Source of the DNA: Nitrospirota bacterium
Lineage (GTDB): Bacteria > Nitrospirota > Thermodesulfovibrionia > Thermodesulfovibrionales > SM23-35
DNA: 64,000 nucleotides
Assembly: GCA_040753955.1 (NCBI GenBank)
Contig: JBFMDQ010000003.1
Coordinates: 17,312 to 81,311 of the forward strand
Direction: 5' to 3'
Part shown: piece after piece, positions 4,513 through 47,030 of the stretch
How positions within the stretch are numbered: position 1 is the first letter of the stretch
Layout of the letters: every line of letters starts with the position of its first letter
The notes under the pieces: model-generated
Told to the model about the DNA's origin: nothing
What the model saw: only the letters and a program-made list of their open reading frames with translations
The model's database searches: none
Program-made: the position numbers and the translations under genes

Positions 4513-6105
4513 ATGTCTGCTCGCTACATATTGATTTTTACCCTGATAATAGTTCTGATTTCTTGTTCTTGTACACGTGAGCCAGAGGTTAAGAATCCAA
4601 ATACAATCACCATAGGTTTTCTTGCTGATGCAAAAAGACTACTTCCTTTACTTGCTTCAGACAGCGCATCAGGTGATATAAGTGGCCTAATATATAACGG
4701 CCTCACAAAATATGATAAAAATATAAAAATAACAGGTGACCTTGCCGAGTCATGGGAGATCTCTCCTGATGGTCTTAAGATAACCTTCAATCTAAGAAAG
4801 GGTGTCAAATGGCACGACGGTGTAGAATTTACTGCTGACGATGTCATGTTTACATATAAGACCGTTATAGACCCAAAAGTTCCAACACCATACAGTAGCA
4901 ACTATGGACCTGTTGAAAAAGCCGAGGTTCTGGATAAATACACTATAAAGGTTACATACAAAGAACCATATGCTCCTGCACTCGAGTCGTGGGGGATGGG
5001 CATAATACCTAAACATATACTTGAAGGAAAAGATATAACTGCTGAAAAATACAATAGAAATCCAATAGGGACAGGCCCATATAGACTTAAGGAATGGGTT
5101 ACAGGTCAGAAGATAGTCCTTGAAGCATTTAATGATTATTTTGAAGGAAGGCCAAAGATTGATAAATATGTTGCGAGGGTTATTCCTGATGCTGCAACAA
5201 TGTTTCTCGAGCTTAAATTTGGAGGTATAGATTTTATGGGTCTTACACCCCCGCAGTATAAACTACAGGCAAATACTAAATTCTTTAACAAATACTTTCA
5301 GAAATTCAGGTATCCTTCTTTTGGATATACATATTTAGGATATAACCAACTTGATCCGAAATTTTCGGACAGAAGGGTTAGGCAGGCTTTAACATATGCT
5401 ATTAACAAAAAGGATATTATAGATGGTGTTCTGCTCGGCTATGGAATACCTTGCACAGGACCATTTCCTCCAGAATCATGGGCATACAACTCAGAGATAA
5501 AAGACCTTGAATATGATCCTGAGAAGGCACGGATGCTTTTTGCTCAGACAGGATGGAAGGCGGGGAAGGGTGGTTTCCTTGAAAAGGATGGTAAGCCTTT
5601 CAGTTTCACAGTCCTTGTGAACCAGGGTAATGAGGCGAGGCTCAAGACAGCTCAGATAATAAAGGAGAACCTTAAGAGGGTCGGGATTGATATGAATATA
5701 AGGGTGCTTGAATGGCAGGCGATGTTACATGAATTTATAGACAAGAAACGCTTTGAGGCAGTCATTATGGGATGGGCTTTATCAAGAGACCCTGATGCCT
5801 ATGACATCTGGCATTCTTCAAAGACCAGGGAAGGGGAATTTAATTTTATTTCATACAAAAATGAGGAGGTTGACAGGCTTCTCCTTCTGGGAAGAAGGAC
5901 ATTTGATATTGAAAAAAGAAGAAAAATTTACCACAGGATACATGAAATCCTCGCGGATGGTCAACCCTACACCTTCCTTTATGTCCCGGATGCCCTTCCC
6001 GTACTTCACAAGAGATTCAAGGGTGTAGAGAAGGCACCGCTGGGCATATGGTATGACTTTATACACTGGTATGTGCCAAAAGAAAAGAATGAGTGGTATA
6101 GGTAG
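4513..6105 (+). CDS. ABC transporter substrate-binding lipoprotein, family 5 (peptide/nickel type)
   Basis: The 530-aa ORF has a signal peptide with a Cys lipobox region (LISCSC). Its length and motifs are typical of the OppA/DppA/NikA family. No permease gene is adjacent. Confidence 0.8.
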   Translation: MSARYILIFTLIIVLISCSCTREPEVKNPNTITIGFLADAKRLLPLLASDSASGDISGLIYNGLTKYDKNIKITGDLAESWEISPDGLKITFNLRKGVKWHDGVEFTADDVMFTYKTVIDPKVPTPYSSNYGPVEKAEVLDKYTIKVTYKEPYAPALESWGMGIIPKHILEGKDITAEKYNRNPIGTGPYRLKEWVTGQKIVLEAFNDYFEGRPKIDKYVARVIPDAATMFLELKFGGIDFMGLTPPQYKLQANTKFFNKYFQKFRYPSFGYTYLGYNQLDPKFSDRRVRQALTYAINKKDIIDGVLLGYGIPCTGPFPPESWAYNSEIKDLEYDPEKARMLFAQTGWKAGKGGFLEKDGKPFSFTVLVNQGNEARLKTAQIIKENLKRVGIDMNIRVLEWQAMLHEFIDKKRFEAVIMGWALSRDPDAYDIWHSSKTREGEFNFISYKNEEVDRLLLLGRRTFDIEKRRKIYHRIHEILADGQPYTFLYVPDALPVLHKRFKGVEKAPLGIWYDFIHWYVPKEKNEWYR

Positions 6106-9410: not shown

Positions 9411-10202
9411 GTGATCAATTATGAACCTAACAGACGAATCCAAGGCGATCCTGTGACTAAAATCTATGTCATAGGAATAGGCTACAAGCCCTTTGATAAA
9501 AGACAGAGGGAGATTATCTATAACTCCGAGTTCATCCTTTCCTCCAGCAGGCTTTTTGAGGTCTTTAAAGGATATGAAGAGTTTGAGAAGGTGAAGGAAA
9601 GGGTGCTCATAATTGATAATGTGGATGAGACCATCAACTTCATAAAATCCAAAATTCGTACACAAGGGGGACTGTGTCCCCCTTGTGAAATCCCCCTTGA
9701 AGAAAAGGGGCTCACGAGGGAAACTATGTTTCCCCCGTGTGGTATAACTGTCCTTGCCTCTGGAGACCCTTTGTTCTTTGGTATTGGTAGAAGGGTCATC
9801 AGTGAATTCAGGAAAGATATGATGGAGATAATCCCTGATCTTTCAAGCATTCAGGTGGCATTTTCGAGGATAAAGGAGCCCTGGGATGATGCCTTTCTCA
9901 TGAGTCTTCACAAAGGCCCGGACCCTAAAAAGAGAAGGAAGTTAAAGTATGAAATTAAGGATATCCCTGCTTTGCTTAAAAGGCACAAAAAAATTGCAAT
10001 CCTTACGGATAAAGAAAATAACCCTACAGGGATTGCAAAAATTCTTACCTCATCACCCATCACCCGTAATTTATCGCTCATAATGTTTGTCTGTGAAAGA
10101 CTTGGTTATCCTGATGAAAAAATCATTGAGGGGACACCTGAAGATATTGCAGGTAAATCCTTTTCAATCCCTAACGTAGTTATTGTTCTGATGAAAACGT
10201 AG
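9411..10202 (+). CDS. cbiE: Precorrin-6Y C5,15-methyltransferase subunit CbiE-like tetrapyrrole methylase carrying an internal ~29-codon insertion
   Basis: The ORF has IYVIGIG, VLASGDPLFFGIG and IPDLSSIQVAFSR blocks. An alternative GTG start lies at 9453. The insertion spans 9657-9743. Confidence 0.65.
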   Translation: MINYEPNRRIQGDPVTKIYVIGIGYKPFDKRQREIIYNSEFILSSSRLFEVFKGYEEFEKVKERVLIIDNVDETINFIKSKIRTQGGLCPPCEIPLEEKGLTRETMFPPCGITVLASGDPLFFGIGRRVISEFRKDMMEIIPDLSSIQVAFSRIKEPWDDAFLMSLHKGPDPKKRRKLKYEIKDIPALLKRHKKIAILTDKENNPTGIAKILTSSPITRNLSLIMFVCERLGYPDEKIIEGTPEDIAGKSFSIPNVVIVLMKT

Positions 10203-10267
10203 GGTTCCCTTTTTATCCAAGTGAAAACTGGAATTCCTTCATAAATATAAATACAATAAAATCGAAG

Positions 10268-11053
10268 ATGACCAAGGATGACTTAATCTTCTTCAAAAAC
10301 TGGTTCTCTGATTACTGCAAATCCTTCTATTCATCAAATAGGGAAGACCAGAGGAATATCCGTCTCAAGGAAGTTCATACCTTTAATGTTTGCGAGAACA
10401 TCATTGAGATAGGCAGGGAATTATCCCTCAGCGATAGTGAGATGATGCTCGCCGAGACAGTAGCCCTTTTCCACGATATAGGGAGATTTCCACAGTATGT
10501 AAAATACAAAACATTTGTGGATAGCATATCCGTCAATCATAGTCTTCTCGGAGCTCAGACACTCCTCGAGGAAAAGACCCTCCAGAATCTCCCAGAAGAT
10601 GAGCAGGAATTGATTATCCAGGCAGTGAGGTTTCATAACGCCTTTTCGATACCAAAAATAGAAAAAGAGGATATTGTTTTCTTCATCAAATTGATAAAGG
10701 ATGCGGATAAACTGGACATATGGCGGGTATTTATAGAATATTATGAGAGTCCTGAAGAGAATAGGGCTTCTGCAGTCGGTCTTGGATTGCCAGATACAAC
10801 GGATTATTCAGAAGAGGTCCTCTTGAATATTTTTAAAAAGAAGATGGCTTCTCTTTCTAAAGTAAAGACATTGAATGATTTCAAAATCATGCAGCTCTCA
10901 TGGGTGTATGACCTCAATTTCAGGACCTCTTTTAGGTTGCTAATGGAAAGGAATTATATAGAAAGGATTGTCTCAAAGTTGCCAAAGACAGAGGAGATTC
11001 ACAGGGCCTCAGCGTACTTAAAGGAATTCGTTTACAGTAAATTAAAGATTTGA
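10268..11053 (+). CDS. HD-domain metal-dependent phosphohydrolase
   Basis: The 261-aa ORF has H...HDIGR (ALFHDIGRF) and the downstream DADKLD motif. Confidence 0.75.
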   Translation: MTKDDLIFFKNWFSDYCKSFYSSNREDQRNIRLKEVHTFNVCENIIEIGRELSLSDSEMMLAETVALFHDIGRFPQYVKYKTFVDSISVNHSLLGAQTLLEEKTLQNLPEDEQELIIQAVRFHNAFSIPKIEKEDIVFFIKLIKDADKLDIWRVFIEYYESPEENRASAVGLGLPDTTDYSEEVLLNIFKKKMASLSKVKTLNDFKIMQLSWVYDLNFRTSFRLLMERNYIERIVSKLPKTEEIHRASAYLKEFVYSKLKI

Positions 11054-31166: not shown

Positions 31167-31260
31167 TTAAACTATATTATATCTAAATCAAGTGATTTTT
31201 TCGTCTATATCATGGCAAGTCAGTCCGCCTCTGGCGGATGCCGCTACCTGAATTCAAGTC

Positions 31261-31384
31261 AAAATTATCAATGAGTAATTATCAATTAACAATGAGCAAT
31301 TACCAAGTTAAATTTTCAATGATAATTTTGCATTGATAATTGCTAATTTTTATTTGATTATTATTTGGTCATTGGGTATTTTAG
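31261..31384. repeat. Heptamer-periodic AT-rich inverted-repeat element (AATNNNN words)
   Basis: Six in-phase heptads run AATTATC AATGAGT AATTATC AATTAAC AATGAGC AATTACC (31263-31304). They face an inverted arm ending at about 31384. The element shares an identical 17-mer and 20-mer with the hypB-hypF spacer. Confidence 0.7.
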
Positions 31385-38242: not shown

Positions 38243-38958
38243 TGGGTAGCCTCTTTTATTAACTCCTTCATTTCCCTAACAGCCCTCTCCATTCCCACAA
38301 GCACCGCCTTTGAAACGATACTGTGTCCTATGTAAAGCCCCCTTATGCCCTGTATAGAGGCTATTTTTGTAACATTAAAATAGTTAAGACCGTGCCCTGC
38401 ATTGACCACAAGACCAATATCAAGCGCGTGTCTAACTGCATTCGTAACCCGAATCAATTCTTCTTCCTGCCTTTTACCTTTTACATTTGCATAAATTCCT
38501 GTGTGTATTTCAACCATATCTGCTTCTATCTGTTTCGATAGAGTAATGTCTTCAAGATCGGGATTTATAAATAGACTCACGGGTATGCCGACACCCTTAA
38601 TCTTTTTTATTGCATCCTGAATGTTTTTTTTCTGCGATTTTACATCGAGTCCACCTTCTGTTGTGAGTTCCTGCCTTTTTTCTGGTACCAAGGTAACCAG
38701 ATCAGGTTCTGTCTGGGTAGCGATCCTTATCATCTCTTTTGTTGCTGCCATCTCGAGGTTTAATTCAACAAGTATAAACTCCTTTAACATCTTCAAATCC
38801 TTATCCTGAATGTGACGCCTGTCCTCCCTTAGATGAACTGTGATTCCATCTGCACCACCGAATATAGCTAAGGTTGCAGCCATAACAGGGTCAGGCTCAA
38901 TACCCCTTCTTGCCTGTCTTATAGTAGCCACATGGTCAACATTAACACCTAATATCAT
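38239..38958 (-). CDS. pdxJ: Pyridoxine 5'-phosphate synthase
   Basis: The start is set at MILGVNVDHVATIRQARR. The motifs HLREDRRHI and GHGL are present. The 22 upstream codons of the tracked ORF are repeat DNA. Confidence 0.9.
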   Translation of the reverse strand: MILGVNVDHVATIRQARRGIEPDPVMAATLAIFGGADGITVHLREDRRHIQDKDLKMLKEFILVELNLEMAATKEMIRIATQTEPDLVTLVPEKRQELTTEGGLDVKSQKKNIQDAIKKIKGVGIPVSLFINPDLEDITLSKQIEADMVEIHTGIYANVKGKRQEEELIRVTNAVRHALDIGLVVNAGHGLNYFNVTKIASIQGIRGLYIGHSIVSKAVLVGMERAVREMKELIKEATH

Positions 38959-38965
38959 AAAAGAA

Positions 38966-39190
38966 CTCCAATGATCAATAACCAAATACCAATAACCAAA
39001 TAAATTCCAATAATCAAAAACCAATAACCAAACAACATTAACCCTTAATTAGCAACTGAACCACTTGCACGGATTAACTGTGAAATGAGTTCTCTGTGGT
39101 TCTCTCTTCAAGGTCGAATTTTTGTTTGGTTATTGGAATTTTCTTCATTGGTTATTATTTGGATCTTGGAATTTGGTGTTTGGTTATTAT
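38966..39190. repeat. Long inverted repeat of ~70-nt heptamer-periodic arms (ATAACCA/AATACCA words) filling the hypE-pdxJ spacer
   Basis: The arm at 38966-39036 faces the inverted arm at 39121-39190, with an 84-nt centre. A third copy of the arm lies at 46935-47000. Confidence 0.75.
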
Positions 39191-39195
39191 CTGCA

Positions 39196-41279: not shown

Positions 41280-43778
41280 TCATCTTCCTGCCTTTATCCT
41301 TTCCCTGATTATATATGCCTGGCCGAGGGATATCCCGGCATCATTACATGCAACCTTTTCGTTGACATAGACTTCCATTCCTATGGATTTAAGCCTTGCG
41401 ATGGTCCTTTCGAGGAGATAAATGTTCTGAAATACCCCCCCGCTCAGAACAACTTCTTTTATCATATAAAGGGAAGAGAGCTTCTGCGCAATTCTAAAAA
41501 TAGCAGTGGCTACGGTGTTATGGAAAAGAGATGCAATAACACCTTCATCCTCTCCTTTTATTGAATCCTCTATAATCCTCAGAAAAGTCTGGGAGAAATC
41601 AATCTCTATGGCCTCTCTGAATTTTATATCTACAGGATAGTCATCAACTACATCAGGTCTCGTTATGGCTTCAAGTGCAATAGCTGCCTCTCCTTCAAAG
41701 GTATTTTTGTCACATATCCCGAGTATGGCTGAGACCACATCGAAGAGTCTCCCGGCTCCTGATGAAAGGGGCGAAAATTGTTTTTTATCGATAATCCTCG
41801 ATATGTTTTCCGTCGTCTCATGACCATACTTATCAAGAAAGCCTATGGACTCAAGATAATCCATCGCCTTATCTTGAGCCATGTTCCAAATATAGCTCAC
41901 AGCTGTCCTCCACGGTTCCTTAATTGCCACTTCACCCCCTGGAAGGGGAATATATCTGAAATGACCTACCCTTTCGAACCCCTCTATATTGGCAATTAAA
42001 ATTTCTCCACCCCAGAGATTTCCATCAGTGCCATAACCGGTTCCATCAAAGGAGAAACCTATAACCCTCCTCTTTATCCCCTTTTCAGCCATCACAGAAG
42101 CAATATGGGCATAGTGGTGCTGTATACCTATCTTTTCAATATCTTCCTGCCGCAATGCCCATTGTGTTGATAGATACCCGGGATGGAGGTCATAGGCAAG
42201 GGCCACAGGCTCTACCCTGTAAACATCTTTAAGGTTTTCTAAGCTCTCCTCAAAAAACCTCAATGTCTCGTAGTTTTCCATATCACCTATATGCTGACTC
42301 GGTATCGCAAAACCTCCCTTTGTGAGGGTGAAGGTGTTCTTAATATCAGCTCCACATCCGAGAACCTCAGGGCCCTCCTCGTGAAAGGGAATGGGGTCAG
42401 GGACATATCCGCGAGAACGTCTTATAAAAAAAGTCGGGAGTCGGGAGTCGGGAGTCAAGGATCCTAATTTTTGATTTTTAATTTTTAATTCTTGACTGAT
42501 GACTCTTACTACTGAATCATCAACCCGCATAAAAATATCTCTATTATGAATAAGAAAGGCATCAGCAATGTCTGAAAGCGTAGAGAAAGCCTCATTATTG
42601 TCTATGACGATAGGCTCTTCCGAGAGGTTGCCACTCGTCATGATAAGGGCATCGAAGTTAGTCGTTAGTCGATAGTCGATAGTCGATAGTCCTGAAGCTG
42701 TAGCCGCAGGCTTCAGCCTGCGAAATTTTTCATTTAAGGGATAAAAAAATAATAGATAATGCAACGGGGTATACGGAAGCATGAAGCCGAGGCAGGGGTT
42801 ATTCGGTGCAATTGCATCGGGAAGAGAGTTTTGCCTCTTTTTAAGTAGCACAATCGGTCTTTTGTTAGAAATTAAAAGCTCCTCCTCTTCTTTAGATACG
42901 TCGCAGAATTTTTTAATCGTTCCAACATCAGGCGCCATCAGGGCAAAGGGTTTGTTACTCTTTCTCTTCCTTAATCTCAACGTCTTTACTGCCTCATCGT
43001 TAGTTGCATCGCAGCCTAAATGAAACCCTCCAAGCCCCTTAATAGCAACAACTTTTCCTTCTTTCATGAGTTTTATTGTCGCCTCTATAGGATTTCCTTT
43101 TTCATAGACTTTTAGCTCTTCACCTAATAATCCCCTCATTCCCTCTTTATCCCTCTTAGTCCCCCCTTGGTAAGGGGGGAAATAGGGGGGTGAGGGGGGA
43201 TTACTTTCATTCTTTACTATTAATTCAACATGTGGACCGCATGCTGCACATGCATTCGGCTGGGCATGGAACCTCCTGTCTTCTGGATTATGGTATTCTT
43301 CCTCGCATTTAGGGCACATCTGAAAAACAGACATGGTAGTGCTCGGTCTATCATAAGGAACAGATTTTGTTATTGTATATCTTGGACCGCAGTTCGTGCA
43401 GTTTATGAATGGATAGAGGTAACGTCTGTCATTCTTATCCAGCAGCTCCCTCAAGCAGTCTTCGCATAACGAGACATCTGGAGAAATGAGGGTGAAACTC
43501 CCTTCGTCCTTACTCCTGACTATCTGAAAATCCTGATAACCATGATAGGGCATGGGAATTATATCAATTTCCATTATCTGTGAAAGAGGCGGGGCCTCTC
43601 TGGTAAGCCTCTCGATAAAGGTGGAGCTATTGTTACCTTCTATCTCGATAGTAACACCCCTGGATGAGTTCATCACGAGGCCCTTGAGATTCAAAGTTTT
43701 GGCAAGGCTATAAACAAAGGGCCTGAAGCCAACTCCCTGGACAATTCCCCTGACTAATATCTTCACCCTGGGTTTCAT
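41280..43778 (-). CDS. hypF: Carbamoyltransferase HypF carrying three in-frame repeat-derived insertions
   Basis: The 832-aa ORF has an acylphosphatase domain, two CxxC-x18-CxxC zinc fingers, a YrdC-like domain (AIKGLGGFHL) and a Kae1-like domain. Extra segments lie at 43116-43211, 42651-42743 and 42426-42500. Confidence 0.9.
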   Translation of the reverse strand: MKPRVKILVRGIVQGVGFRPFVYSLAKTLNLKGLVMNSSRGVTIEIEGNNSSTFIERLTREAPPLSQIMEIDIIPMPYHGYQDFQIVRSKDEGSFTLISPDVSLCEDCLRELLDKNDRRYLYPFINCTNCGPRYTITKSVPYDRPSTTMSVFQMCPKCEEEYHNPEDRRFHAQPNACAACGPHVELIVKNESNPPSPPYFPPYQGGTKRDKEGMRGLLGEELKVYEKGNPIEATIKLMKEGKVVAIKGLGGFHLGCDATNDEAVKTLRLRKRKSNKPFALMAPDVGTIKKFCDVSKEEEELLISNKRPIVLLKKRQNSLPDAIAPNNPCLGFMLPYTPLHYLLFFYPLNEKFRRLKPAATASGLSTIDYRLTTNFDALIMTSGNLSEEPIVIDNNEAFSTLSDIADAFLIHNRDIFMRVDDSVVRVISQELKIKNQKLGSLTPDSRLPTFFIRRSRGYVPDPIPFHEEGPEVLGCGADIKNTFTLTKGGFAIPSQHIGDMENYETLRFFEESLENLKDVYRVEPVALAYDLHPGYLSTQWALRQEDIEKIGIQHHYAHIASVMAEKGIKRRVIGFSFDGTGYGTDGNLWGGEILIANIEGFERVGHFRYIPLPGGEVAIKEPWRTAVSYIWNMAQDKAMDYLESIGFLDKYGHETTENISRIIDKKQFSPLSSGAGRLFDVVSAILGICDKNTFEGEAAIALEAITRPDVVDDYPVDIKFREAIEIDFSQTFLRIIEDSIKGEDEGVIASLFHNTVATAIFRIAQKLSSLYMIKEVVLSGGVFQNIYLLERTIARLKSIGMEVYVNEKVACNDAGISLGQAYIIRERIKAGR

Positions 43779-43828
43779 TAACCATTAATCAGTTTTGCGA
43801 GATCCCATGCTCAAAGGTTTAATTGCAA

Positions 43829-44045
43829 GTTAAAATTATCAATTAACAATTATTAATTTTACTGTTTTTCACAATACGGTTAAGGTTACGATGCCGGTAT
43901 CGTTATTCGGTTACGTCTTTCGGCCTCGAACTCAATAGTATAGAAAAACGAATGACATTGGCCGTTGGACGGCACGGGCTTCTTAACCTTAAACCTCTTT
44001 ACCCTATAATACGGTTAATTTTACATTGATAATTGCTAATTTTCA
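43829..44045. repeat. AATTATC-type hairpin element interrupted by a 124-bp GC-richer insert flanked by an 11-bp direct repeat
   Basis: The 17-mer AATTATCAATTAACAAT (43834-43850) and 20-mer CATTGATAATTGCTAATTTT (44024-44043) are identical to 31277-31293 and 31331-31350. The direct repeat AATACGGTTAA lies at 43873-43883 and 44008-44018. Confidence 0.7.
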
Positions 44046-45852: not shown

Positions 45853-46944
45853 ATGGGTGACGAACTTTATATAAAGCGTGCCCTTAGGCTTGCAGCAAAG
45901 GCACGCTGTATGACAAGCCCGAACCCCATGGTTGGGGCTATAATTGTCAAGAATGGGAGAACAATTTCTGAGGATTTTCATAGAAGGCCTGGGACTCCCC
46001 ATGCTGAGGCTCTCGCTATAGAAAAGGCCGGAGAAAATGCCAGGGGTTCCACCCTTTATATAAATCTCGAGCCATGCTGCCATACAGAGAAAAGAACCCC
46101 TCCCTGCACAGAGGCTATCATTAGTGCGGGTATAAAAGAAGTGGTTATTGCTATGACAGACCCAAATCCAAAGGTCTCGGGCAGAGGAATCTCAGAGCTT
46201 CAGAAGGCTGGTATAAAAGTCAGATCAGGTATTCTCGAGAACAAAGCAGAGAGACTTAATGAGGCATATATAAAGTACATGACTACAGGAAAACCCTTTG
46301 TGATACTAAAGATTGCCATGACCCTCGATGGGAAGATTGCTACCCCTGAAGGGCAGTCTAAATGGATAACATCCGAAAAGGCAAGAAAGATGGTTCACCG
46401 TCTGAGAGGCAGCGTTGACGCAATCATAACAGCTATAGGAACAGTTAAAGCAGATGACCCTGAGCTTACGGTAAGGATAAAAGATGGTAAGAATCCCCGA
46501 AGGATCGTTATTGACCCTGACCTTGAAATATCTTTGAATGCAAAGGTTCTTAAGGTACCACCCCCGACAATTATAATAGCGAAAAAGTCAGCAGTCGAAG
46601 AAAAGAAAAAAACATTGTTCAATAAGGGTGTTCAAATCATCGAGTATAAGGGAGAAAAACTAAATCTCCACTGGCTCATGAGAAGGCTTGGGGGAAGAGA
46701 AATCACATCGGTTCTGATAGAGGCAGGCTCCTCGATGAATGCCCATGCCCTCGAAGAAGGAATTGTCGACAAGGTGATATTTTTCATTGCACCGAAGATC
46801 ATCGGAGGGAGAGAGTCATTCCCTGCTGTAGGTGGGAAGTCCTTCAGGAGGCTTGAAGAGGCATACCGTTTAAAGGATGTGAAGGTAAGAAGGGTAGGGG
46901 AAGATATCTTGATTGAAGGATATATAGATAAGAATAACCAATAA
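45853..46944 (+). CDS. ribD: Bifunctional riboflavin biosynthesis protein RibD (deaminase/reductase)
   Basis: The 363-aa ORF has the CDA motifs HAE and PCxH..(x)..PC, plus a C-terminal RibD reductase domain. The last codons and the stop lie in repeat DNA. Confidence 0.95.
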   Translation: MGDELYIKRALRLAAKARCMTSPNPMVGAIIVKNGRTISEDFHRRPGTPHAEALAIEKAGENARGSTLYINLEPCCHTEKRTPPCTEAIISAGIKEVVIAMTDPNPKVSGRGISELQKAGIKVRSGILENKAERLNEAYIKYMTTGKPFVILKIAMTLDGKIATPEGQSKWITSEKARKMVHRLRGSVDAIITAIGTVKADDPELTVRIKDGKNPRRIVIDPDLEISLNAKVLKVPPPTIIIAKKSAVEEKKKTLFNKGVQIIEYKGEKLNLHWLMRRLGGREITSVLIEAGSSMNAHALEEGIVDKVIFFIAPKIIGGRESFPAVGGKSFRRLEEAYRLKDVKVRRVGEDILIEGYIDKNNQ

Positions 46945-47030
46945 CCAAGCACCAAATTCCAAATAAATTACAATGACCAAATTCCAATAACCAAACAAAA
47001 AATCTCTGTAGCCGCAGGCTTCAATCTGCG
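46935..47030. repeat. Composite repeat: one ATAACCA-type arm followed by the 24-nt motif TGTAGCCGCAGGCTTCAATCTGCG
   Basis: The arm resembles 38966-39036. The 24-mer at 47007-47030 matches 42699-42722 inside hypF at 22 of 24 positions. Confidence 0.7.

Follow-up and report, generated by a model that had tools for sequence, protein, structure and literature searches.

The insert in cbiE

We analysed a 64,000-nucleotide stretch of DNA from a Nitrospirota bacterium (contig JBFMDQ010000003.1 of assembly GCA_040753955.1), referred to here as the window, and focused on a palindromic segment within cbiE, the gene for the precorrin-6y / cobalt-precorrin-7 C5-methyltransferase subunit. An initial annotation had described the segment as three consecutive hairpins lying in frame, and without a stop codon, in a cbiE-like gene, and sequence and folding agreed with each of these points. 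The host open reading frame (ORF) matched the CbiE profile TIGR02467 with a score of 144.6 bits, compared with a cut-off of 92.9, as well as PF00590, and the CbiE match was interrupted exactly at the insert. The ORF is open from a GTG at 9411; the GTG at 9456 agrees with the orthologue NH2-terminus MTKIYVIGIGY and, on this comparison, is the likely start of cbiE. Coordinates of the features are collected in Table 1.

Table 1. Positions of the cbiE element, its parts and the other insertion sites in the window.
Feature	Position	Strand	Basis
cbiE	9456..10202	+	ORF list, TIGR02467, PF00590, orthologue alignment
Whole inserted element, about 79 nucleotides; tail-to-tail doublet of inverted palindromic units, REPIN-like	9661..9739	+	folding, covariance model R1, consensus fold of four doublets
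Unit A hairpin (hairpin 1), CACAAGGGGGAC-TGT-GTCCCCCTTGTG; perfect 12-bp stem, 3-nucleotide loop; signature module of the family	9661..9687	+	
Unit A tail, AAATCCCCCTT, adjoining hairpin 1; kept in nearly all Nitrospirota copies	9688..9698	+	alignment A4
Hairpin 2, CCCCTT-GAAGAA-AAGGGG; 6-bp stem, tail of unit A paired with inverted tail of unit B	9693..9710	+	
Unit B hairpin (hairpin 3), CACGAGGGAAAC-TAT-GTTTCCCCCGTG; 12-bp stem with one A.C mismatch	9713..9739	+	
Encoded peptide GGLCPPCEIPLEEKGLTRETMFPP, CbiE residues 71-94	9666..9737	+	low-confidence loop predicted by AlphaFold2; comparison with 2bb3
Example peptide expected from the translated insert region, TQGGLCPPCEIPLEEK			
SBP_bac_5 gene site (gene 4513-6105); sister genome bears unit B and tail hairpin, absent from the window	5545..5590	+	
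Type-2 palindromic insert in hypF (gene 41280-43778, minus strand), around TCCCCCCTT-ACC-AAGGGGGGA with flanking C-runs and G-runs; encodes ESNPPSPPYFPPYQGGTKRDKEGMRGLLGEE	43116..43208	-	

Folding of the region 9650-9750 yielded exactly three consecutive hairpins and nothing else. The RNA fold had a free energy of -48.1 kcal/mol (z = -6.0), which none of 200 dinucleotide shuffles equalled, and the DNA fold one of -28.2 kcal/mol (z = -6.5). The stem of hairpin 1 is the only perfect short-loop hairpin of at least 12 bp in the 64-kb window. The core of hairpin 3, GGGAAAC-TAT-GTTTCCC at 9718-9734, was found to extend outward to 9713-9739. A covariance model built from the unit (R1) matched the plus strand at 9659-9701 (66.6 bits) and the minus strand at 9702-9741 (23.3 bits). 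Given that R1 matches the insert on both strands, hairpin 3 and the sequence preceding it are a diverged second unit in inverted orientation. The hairpins are therefore present as first described, but as a doublet of two inverted units instead of three independent structures. The basic unit consists of a 12-bp G5/C5 stem, a 3-nucleotide loop and a AAATCCCCCT tail, and two such units placed tail to tail generate the three-hairpin doublet. The stems of the two units differ in sequence (AAGGGGGAC versus GGGGGAAAC).

The same three-hairpin doublet was found at four or more further loci, including mnmA (locus L089), mqnD (L102), a metagenome locus (L126) and cbiE of a sister genome (L001), which shows 90% amino-acid identity. 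In the consensus fold of four doublets the stems were kept, the outer pairs compensated for each other and the loops varied. In the sister genome, the stem of hairpin 3 has no mismatch over its 12 bp (CATGGGGGAAAC-TAT-GTTTCCCCCATG) and differs from that of the window by a compensatory C-G to T-A change; in a third cbiE allele (L003, encoding protein P0009), hairpin 1 reads CGCAAGGAGGAC-TTT-GTCCTCCTTGCG, with two compensated pair changes. Pairing is thus preserved in the DNA comparison of all three alleles.

To place the segment in the protein, we aligned CbiE with 30 close orthologues from Nitrospirota/Thermodesulfovibrionales (alignment A1) and measured the linker between the VDxT and SGDP motifs in the best 120 orthologue matches. 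The linker comprises 50 residues in the window protein versus 25-30 in most of these orthologues, and on this evidence the segment is an insertion into a variable linker, not a conserved feature of CbiE. An excess over orthologues had been anticipated, although its size was put at about 29 codons; the linker lengths indicate about 20-25. Comparison with orthologues, which had been proposed as a check, showed that the segment is not conserved, with only 3 of the best 120 orthologues carrying an insert of this kind. Among these, the 90% identical protein P0001 has the full three-hairpin insert, and is the sole orthologue to do so, and the 70% identical P0009 has hairpin 1 and its tail only. Orthologues with 75-77% identity have nothing at this position.

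Between the aligned flanking blocks, the solved CbiE structure 2bb3 is about 29 residues shorter than the window protein. In an AlphaFold2 model calculated from alignment A1, the predicted local distance difference test score fell below 50 only at residues 71-94 (nucleotides 9666-9737), between a helix at 56-69 and a strand at 97-101.

We also considered whether the segment might have arisen during assembly or sequencing, for instance from a chimeric or fold-back read, given that library artefacts can create palindromes. The same insert was found in the sister genome in two further independent assemblies (L001 in NCBI GCA_030019415.1 and L002, a contig of Logan SRR23186780), and related copies occur in dozens of metagenome-assembled genomes (MAGs). 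With the insert present in independent assemblies, we rejected this explanation, whose probability we regard as negligible.

cbiE stands alone in the window (9411-11053); its neighbours are a gene of the cytidine/adenosine deaminase type (PF14437/PF00383) and one with an HD domain. Other Nitrospirota (L120, 1-16032) have it fused to cbiT within a large cbi operon.

A dispersed unit and its host genes

We scanned 185,579 species genomes, one per bacterial or archaeal species, with a 20-nucleotide pattern for hairpin 1, CAAGGRGGACNNNGTCCYCCTTG. The scan returned 113 loci, compared with approximately 3 expected by chance (estimated as 596 Gb / 4^20 x 4). Nitrospirota/Thermodesulfovibrionales MAGs accounted for 26 of these loci, with three on different contigs of the sister genome; the 2-4 exact-pattern copies per MAG are a lower bound, as the MAGs are incomplete and the pattern is strict. 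The consensus of the Nitrospirota unit is C-R-CAAGGGGGAC-NNN-GTCCCCCTTG-Y-G-AAATCCCCCT, with the tail shared by nearly all oriented Nitrospirota copies. The consensus of alignment A4 (nnCACAAGGGGGACTnTGTCCCCCTTGTGAAATCCCCCT) comprises a 27-nucleotide hairpin and a tail of about 10 nucleotides, and units range from 27 to 43 nucleotides.

The stem is 2 bp longer than the search pattern, and one of the outer pairs is A-U in 16 and G-C in 9 of 25 Nitrospirota copies, and is never unpaired. Across these copies 99.7% of stem cells are paired, with the invariance of the inner ten pairs, which the pattern fixes, being a matter of ascertainment. The loop is hypervariable. Between CheR loci with 92-98% identical flanks it reads AAA in one case and TTT in the other, a difference that is a loop flip.

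In several Nitrospirota MAGs the unit was found in 11 or more unrelated genes. It can point either way relative to the gene, and five of six combinations of frame and orientation were observed. The host genes encode CbiE, MqnD (PF02621), CheR, RsmG/GidB, MnmA, a SAM hydroxide adenosyltransferase, a MrfA-like DEAD/MZB helicase, a histidine kinase, a methyl-accepting chemotaxis protein, an SBP_bac_5 protein and a PpsA-like PPDK_N/PEP-utiliser protein, the last with two copies. Of 27 Nitrospirota copies, about two-thirds are located well within long ORFs that have recognised domains, and the remainder lie at or near gene ends. Judged by sequence, the cbiE segment therefore belongs to a family of small palindromic repeats dispersed inside many protein-coding genes of Nitrospirota, mostly in MAGs of the Thermodesulfovibrionales type. 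The initial annotation had argued that repeat invasion of coding regions was not confined to a single gene, and the distribution of the family is more general than was claimed. In the PpsA-like gene, the two copies (L012, 3006-3048 and 3657-3699) are in opposite orientations 650 nucleotides apart, and one has an A.C stem mismatch.

Searches for a described counterpart were negative. In Rfam 15 the best match for the region at a permissive E-value was sraA, a generic G5/C5 hairpin hit with 22.8 bits against a gathering threshold of 56, and there were no gathering-level Rfam matches in 14 related loci. Searches of the available literature with motif strings and for intragenic palindromes of Nitrospirae/Thermodesulfovibrio returned nothing specific to the cbiE repeat family.

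Units were translated as QGGxxPPCEIP, RKGDxVPLAKSP, TRGTxSPL or GGFHKGDxVPLV, depending on the host gene. Given that the unit is read in different frames and orientations, and so gives different peptides, conservation at the protein level is ruled out. These peptides bear on whether the insert might be an adaptive protein feature, such as a Cys-rich (CPPC...PPC) loop serving as a metal or redox site. The insert does encode a peptide with three cysteines (CPPC, PPCG), in frame in both the window and L001. However, the same DNA is translated elsewhere as RKGDxVPLA, TRGTxSPL or HKGDxVPLV, which places the conservation at the level of DNA; the peptide is predicted to be disordered and is absent from almost all orthologues, and the palindrome itself dictates the cysteine codons (TGT...CCCCCTTGT). 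The translation in other frames led us to reject a CxxC protein motif, and an adaptive role for the peptide appears extremely unlikely.

The unit is open in five of six frames in its TG variant and in all six in its CG variant, and doublets are open in four of six. The genome of the window has a GC content of 42%, and units consist of G-runs and C-runs; being built from such runs in an AT-rich genome, they are nearly stop-free and rich in Pro and Gly. The inserts appear to be translated rather than removed, since the copies lack stop codons and the indels in mqnD are multiples of three (63 and 27 nucleotides).

Turnover and origin of the insertions

Comparison of close relatives revealed gain, loss and decay of the element. 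At the SBP_bac_5 site, BLAST and alignment showed that 89 nucleotides in L001 replace 26 nucleotides at window 5558-5583, a net gain of 63 nucleotides through a local rearrangement; the R1 match lies at L001 6064-6105 and the encoded peptide is RLHRGNCVSPVEPLPSEGGSH. Nucleotide identity between window 5297-5834 and L001 5800-6400 changes from 79% upstream to 97% downstream, switching exactly at the insertion site, which suggests a recombination boundary at the element. An unbiased sample was provided by 120 MqnD orthologues, in which the corresponding loop segment comprises 26-29 residues in 87 and inserts of several kinds are present in 33. The mqnD allele L122, which is 86% identical to a filled allele, lacks exactly 63 nucleotides and retains ACGCAAGGGGGA, and L123 lacks exactly the 27-nucleotide hairpin 1. 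The length differences among SBP and mqnD alleles (63, 63 and 27 nucleotides) are thus all multiples of three. Hairpin 3 has decayed in the mqnD alleles L034 and L069, where hairpin 1 is still perfect, and P0272, with the peptide RKRD, represents a decayed hairpin. A CAAGAGGGAC/GTCCCCCTTG mismatch is common to three independent metagenome loci and, as inferred from the RKRD peptide, to P0272, which suggests a subfamily copied from a master. A metagenome scan for strain variants with the window's own cbiE flank gave no matches.

These observations are probably best explained if the cbiE segment is one copy of a dispersed selfish repeat, small and non-coding, that resembles repetitive extragenic palindromic (REP) elements and REP doublets forming hairpins (REPINs) and is analogous to the Rickettsia palindromic elements (RPEs). 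On this view the copy entered a permissive linker at the surface of CbiE, where it would now be translated as about 25 residues of disordered loop. Its nearly stop-free composition may allow insertions in protein loops to survive selection and would account for the accumulation of several different repeat families in the same loops of CbiE and MqnD; the element would bring no demonstrated benefit to CbiE. It would spread by copying from master copies, with mobilisation probably occurring as single-stranded hairpin DNA on which an enzyme encoded by the host, for example a RAYT or an IS200-type HUH tyrosine transposase, acts in trans. Intrastrand template switching may keep the arms complementary and flip the loops.

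Several observations weigh against this explanation. A tblastn search of 837 kb of fetched loci with IS200 TnpA found nothing, a weak negative in that the query is insensitive to RAYT. By eye, neither target-site duplications nor defined ends were apparent in 25 oriented copies and three comparisons of filled and empty alleles, and the GTAG / CGTC tag of the two described REP superfamilies is absent. An intact hairpin was a condition of the search that yielded most copies, so that stem conservation partly reflects ascertainment. Both close insert-free alleles, cbiE L006 and mqnD L122, retain sequence resembling the left arm (ACAAGGGGAG and ACGCAAGGGGGA, respectively), which could be a deletion footprint or could point to a targeted, homology-dependent or templated insertion beyond simple transposition. 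Finally, longer repeated elements of Firmicutes, Bacteroidota and Acetobacteraceae likewise contain hairpin 1 together with a C-rich tail, and neutrality leaves this constraint on sequence across phyla unexplained.

The left-arm-like sequence in the closest insert-free alleles would also be expected if the palindromes had arisen in place through template switching or fold-back synthesis, with nothing inserted from elsewhere, and the AAA/TTT loop flips and concerted arm changes are typical products of intrastrand template switching. Nevertheless, the same stretch of about 40 nucleotides, including the non-palindromic tail, and the same 80-nucleotide doublet recur across many genomes and 11 or more unrelated genes. 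Because local duplication cannot yield dispersed copies, an origin of the whole element in place is largely refuted and was rejected; we consider it very unlikely, with template switching probably contributing to maintenance and not to origin.

A further possibility is that the hairpins constitute an mRNA or DNA structure maintained by selection, acting to slow ribosomes between the CbiE lobes, to stabilise or process the transcript, or to bind a protein. The fold is indeed very stable (z = -6), compensatory changes keep hairpins 1 and 3 paired among the window, L001 and L003, hairpin 1 is perfect in mqnD alleles with a decayed hairpin 3, and its sequence recurs across phyla; in L003 the arms of hairpin 1 resemble a Shine-Dalgarno / anti-Shine-Dalgarno pair (AAGGAGG/CCTCCTT). 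Set against this, the insert is present in only 3 of 120 CbiE orthologues and is lacking in closer relatives than some that carry it, and the copies, which face either way relative to the host gene, are spread over unrelated genes that share no function. The unbiased mqnD sample shows decay and partial deletions, the mismatch subfamily persists, no Rfam family matches, and ascertainment accounts for part of the stem conservation. Selection for such a structure therefore seems improbable.

The elements that share hairpin 1 with the Nitrospirota units were examined in MAGs of Ruminococcus, Oscillospiraceae, Alistipes and Acetobacteraceae, where hairpin 1 and a CCCCCT tail form part of multi-hairpin elements of 200-290 nucleotides without an Rfam match. 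These elements contain hairpin 1, a CCCCCTG tail, a second hairpin (AAGGGAC-NNN-GTCCCTT) and a long third hairpin downstream with many compensatory changes, indicating strong covariation. Hairpin 1 lies in the middle of the element at eight loci of Ruminococcus sp. SIG550 (L031, L041, L042, L063, L067, L083, L091, L103), where the elements are flanked by terminator-like hairpins, and at one end in Alistipes/Ruminococcus MAGs (L018, L061, L068, L077, L082, L090, L112, L117). [quoted passage not shown]

The recurrence of hairpin 1 across phyla suggests a sequence-specific partner. As a tentative extension, which we consider rather unlikely, AAGGGGGAC-N3-GTCCCCCTT with its CCCCCT tail may serve a widespread superfamily of hairpin-chain repeats, as yet undescribed, as its shared recognition element. 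Such a superfamily would span at least five phyla (Nitrospirota, Bacillota, Bacteroidota, Pseudomonadota and Chloroflexota) and depend on common machinery, with the short derivatives in Thermodesulfovibrionia having specialised in coding sequence as stop-free Pro/Gly loops. If so, the left-arm-like sequence at insert-free sites would hint at homology- or template-dependent insertion and not at classical transposition.

Related repeats, known systems and significance

The initial annotation had likened the cbiE segment to an insert in hypF. This insert is real, adding 29 residues relative to the 74% identical orthologue P0121 and being absent from other HypF sequences as well, and its DNA is an imperfect long palindrome. 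It does not belong to the same family, given that model R1 did not match it; the core of its family, which we term type-2, is C6-7TT-NNN-AAG6-7. Hairpin 2 of the doublet has this core as its motif, so that the two families are related at the level of the motif, which bears out the proposed link to hypF in a broad sense, and by sequence the hypF insert appears to be a member of a related but distinct family. The 64-kb window contains one site of the cbiE type (type-1) and one of type-2. Type-2 inserts also occur in MqnD, and L120 contains four type-2 elements in 21 kb, all within genes. The sequence AATCCCCCCTTACCAAGGGGGG is common to the hypF insert and the CbiE-linker insert of L120, and is also found in that of L121; these linker inserts encode TPPNPPLxKGGxGG.

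Other repeat-derived inserts were observed in the CbiE linker of other Nitrospirota (L004, L005; proteins P0010, P0025, P0048, P0111 and others), making this linker a general dumping site for repeats. The L004 insert consists of AAAACTC-like tandem units encoding KLKTQNSELRT, with the related QTLNSELRT in L005; the P-numbered proteins were read at the peptide level only, and further linker motifs include FRNSEPSGFRA.

Two further inserts relative to most orthologues are present in hypF on the minus strand (window 42660-42743 and 42432-42494). One contains the hairpin CGCAGGC-TGAA-GCCTGCG followed by about 3.5 copies of the heptamer ACTATCG, with a diverged form in P0121, and the other an A-rich stretch followed by three copies of the heptamer GACTCCC; such heptamer repeats stay in frame because three heptamers amount to 21 nucleotides. 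A separate family of AT-rich repeats with a period of about seven nucleotides (for example, AATAACCAAATACCAATAACC) is found at window 38956-39049, 39116-39193 and 46933-47004, as direct and inverted copies 8 kb apart. Another AT-rich family, CAAGTCAAAATTATCAATGAGTAATTATCAATT / TAATTTTGCATTGATAATTGCTAATTTT, occupies 31254-31355, 43826-43858 and 44016-44043, with two copies just upstream of hypF, and could represent regulatory sites or another small repeat.

To relate the cbiE family to known systems, we compared it with repeats described in the literature. In-frame RPEs, as well as intragenic REP dimers that encode 20-30 residues in Opitutus terrae, Thauera and R. conorii, have been documented (PMC3733652; PMC10969869). 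According to the portions of these sources that summarise Ogata et al. 2000, RPEs are dispersed in frame in unrelated housekeeping genes and translated as loops compatible with folding, and the cbiE family likewise shows in-frame insertion in unrelated functional genes with the reading frame kept. In the same summaries, however, RPEs are approximately 100-150 bp long, restricted to Rickettsia and characterised by a conserved peptide for each family, whereas the cbiE family has units of 27-43 nucleotides, a doublet of about 79 nucleotides and G5-7/C5-7 runs, is read in several frames and is found in Nitrospirota. The link to RPEs is thus proposed as an analogy only, and relatedness in sequence would not be expected.

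REP elements of the GTAG/CGTC superfamilies (Di Nocera et al. 2013, PMC3733652) share with the cbiE family GC-rich stem-loops of 20-40 nucleotides, a family consensus and inverted dimers, but alignment A4 shows neither GTAG/CGTC nor its complement beside the stem, and most of the copies found are intragenic. The general definition of REPs (PMC12306157) lists a palindromic stem-loop, a length of about 14-40 nucleotides with a shared consensus motif, several copies per genome and an extragenic location; the units are short palindromic stem-loops with a consensus, but are not extragenic as a rule. REPINs (Bertels and Rainey 2011, PMC3116915) consist of two inverted REP-like units with a short spacer that recur as a doublet, and inverted units were similarly found to recur together in cbiE, mnmA (L089), mqnD (L102) and L126. 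Compared with that description, the unit sequences differ within the cbiE doublet and singlets are at least as common. In REP/REPIN-RAYT systems the repeats flank a RAYT (Y1 HUH transposase) gene of the same genome; no RAYT was identified in the 837 kb of fetched loci.

Intragenic MITEs (Correia/NEMIS, ERIC and the Coxiella QMITE; PMC10969869, PMC2229807) are also small, non-autonomous repeats with possible in-frame ORF fusions. They differ in having terminal inverted repeats of 15-30 bp, target-site duplications and lengths of 70-300 bp, with the cbiE units being much shorter; we found no flanking direct repeat, and the filled and empty alleles of SBP and mqnD differ without duplication. The coding palindromes of Nematomorpha mitochondria (PMC6649704) are likewise perfect hairpins within functional coding sequence, but both of their arms encode conserved protein regions and they are gene-specific, whereas the cbiE hairpins are insertions of a dispersed family in variable loops.

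Palindromic repeats that colonise housekeeping genes in frame, a phenomenon best known from Rickettsia, thus also occur in free-living Nitrospirota, and on a substantial scale, with about one-third of CbiE orthologues and more than one-quarter of MqnD orthologues carrying some repeat-derived insert in one particular loop. For annotation, variable linker lengths and profile matches broken at insert sites are to be expected, as with the CbiE and HypF models. The repeats provide natural markers for strain typing, and a tractable case for studying both the spread of hairpin repeats for which no transposase is obvious and the recurrence of one 23-nucleotide hairpin across phyla. For protein evolution, they represent a ready source of Pro/Gly-rich loop extensions.

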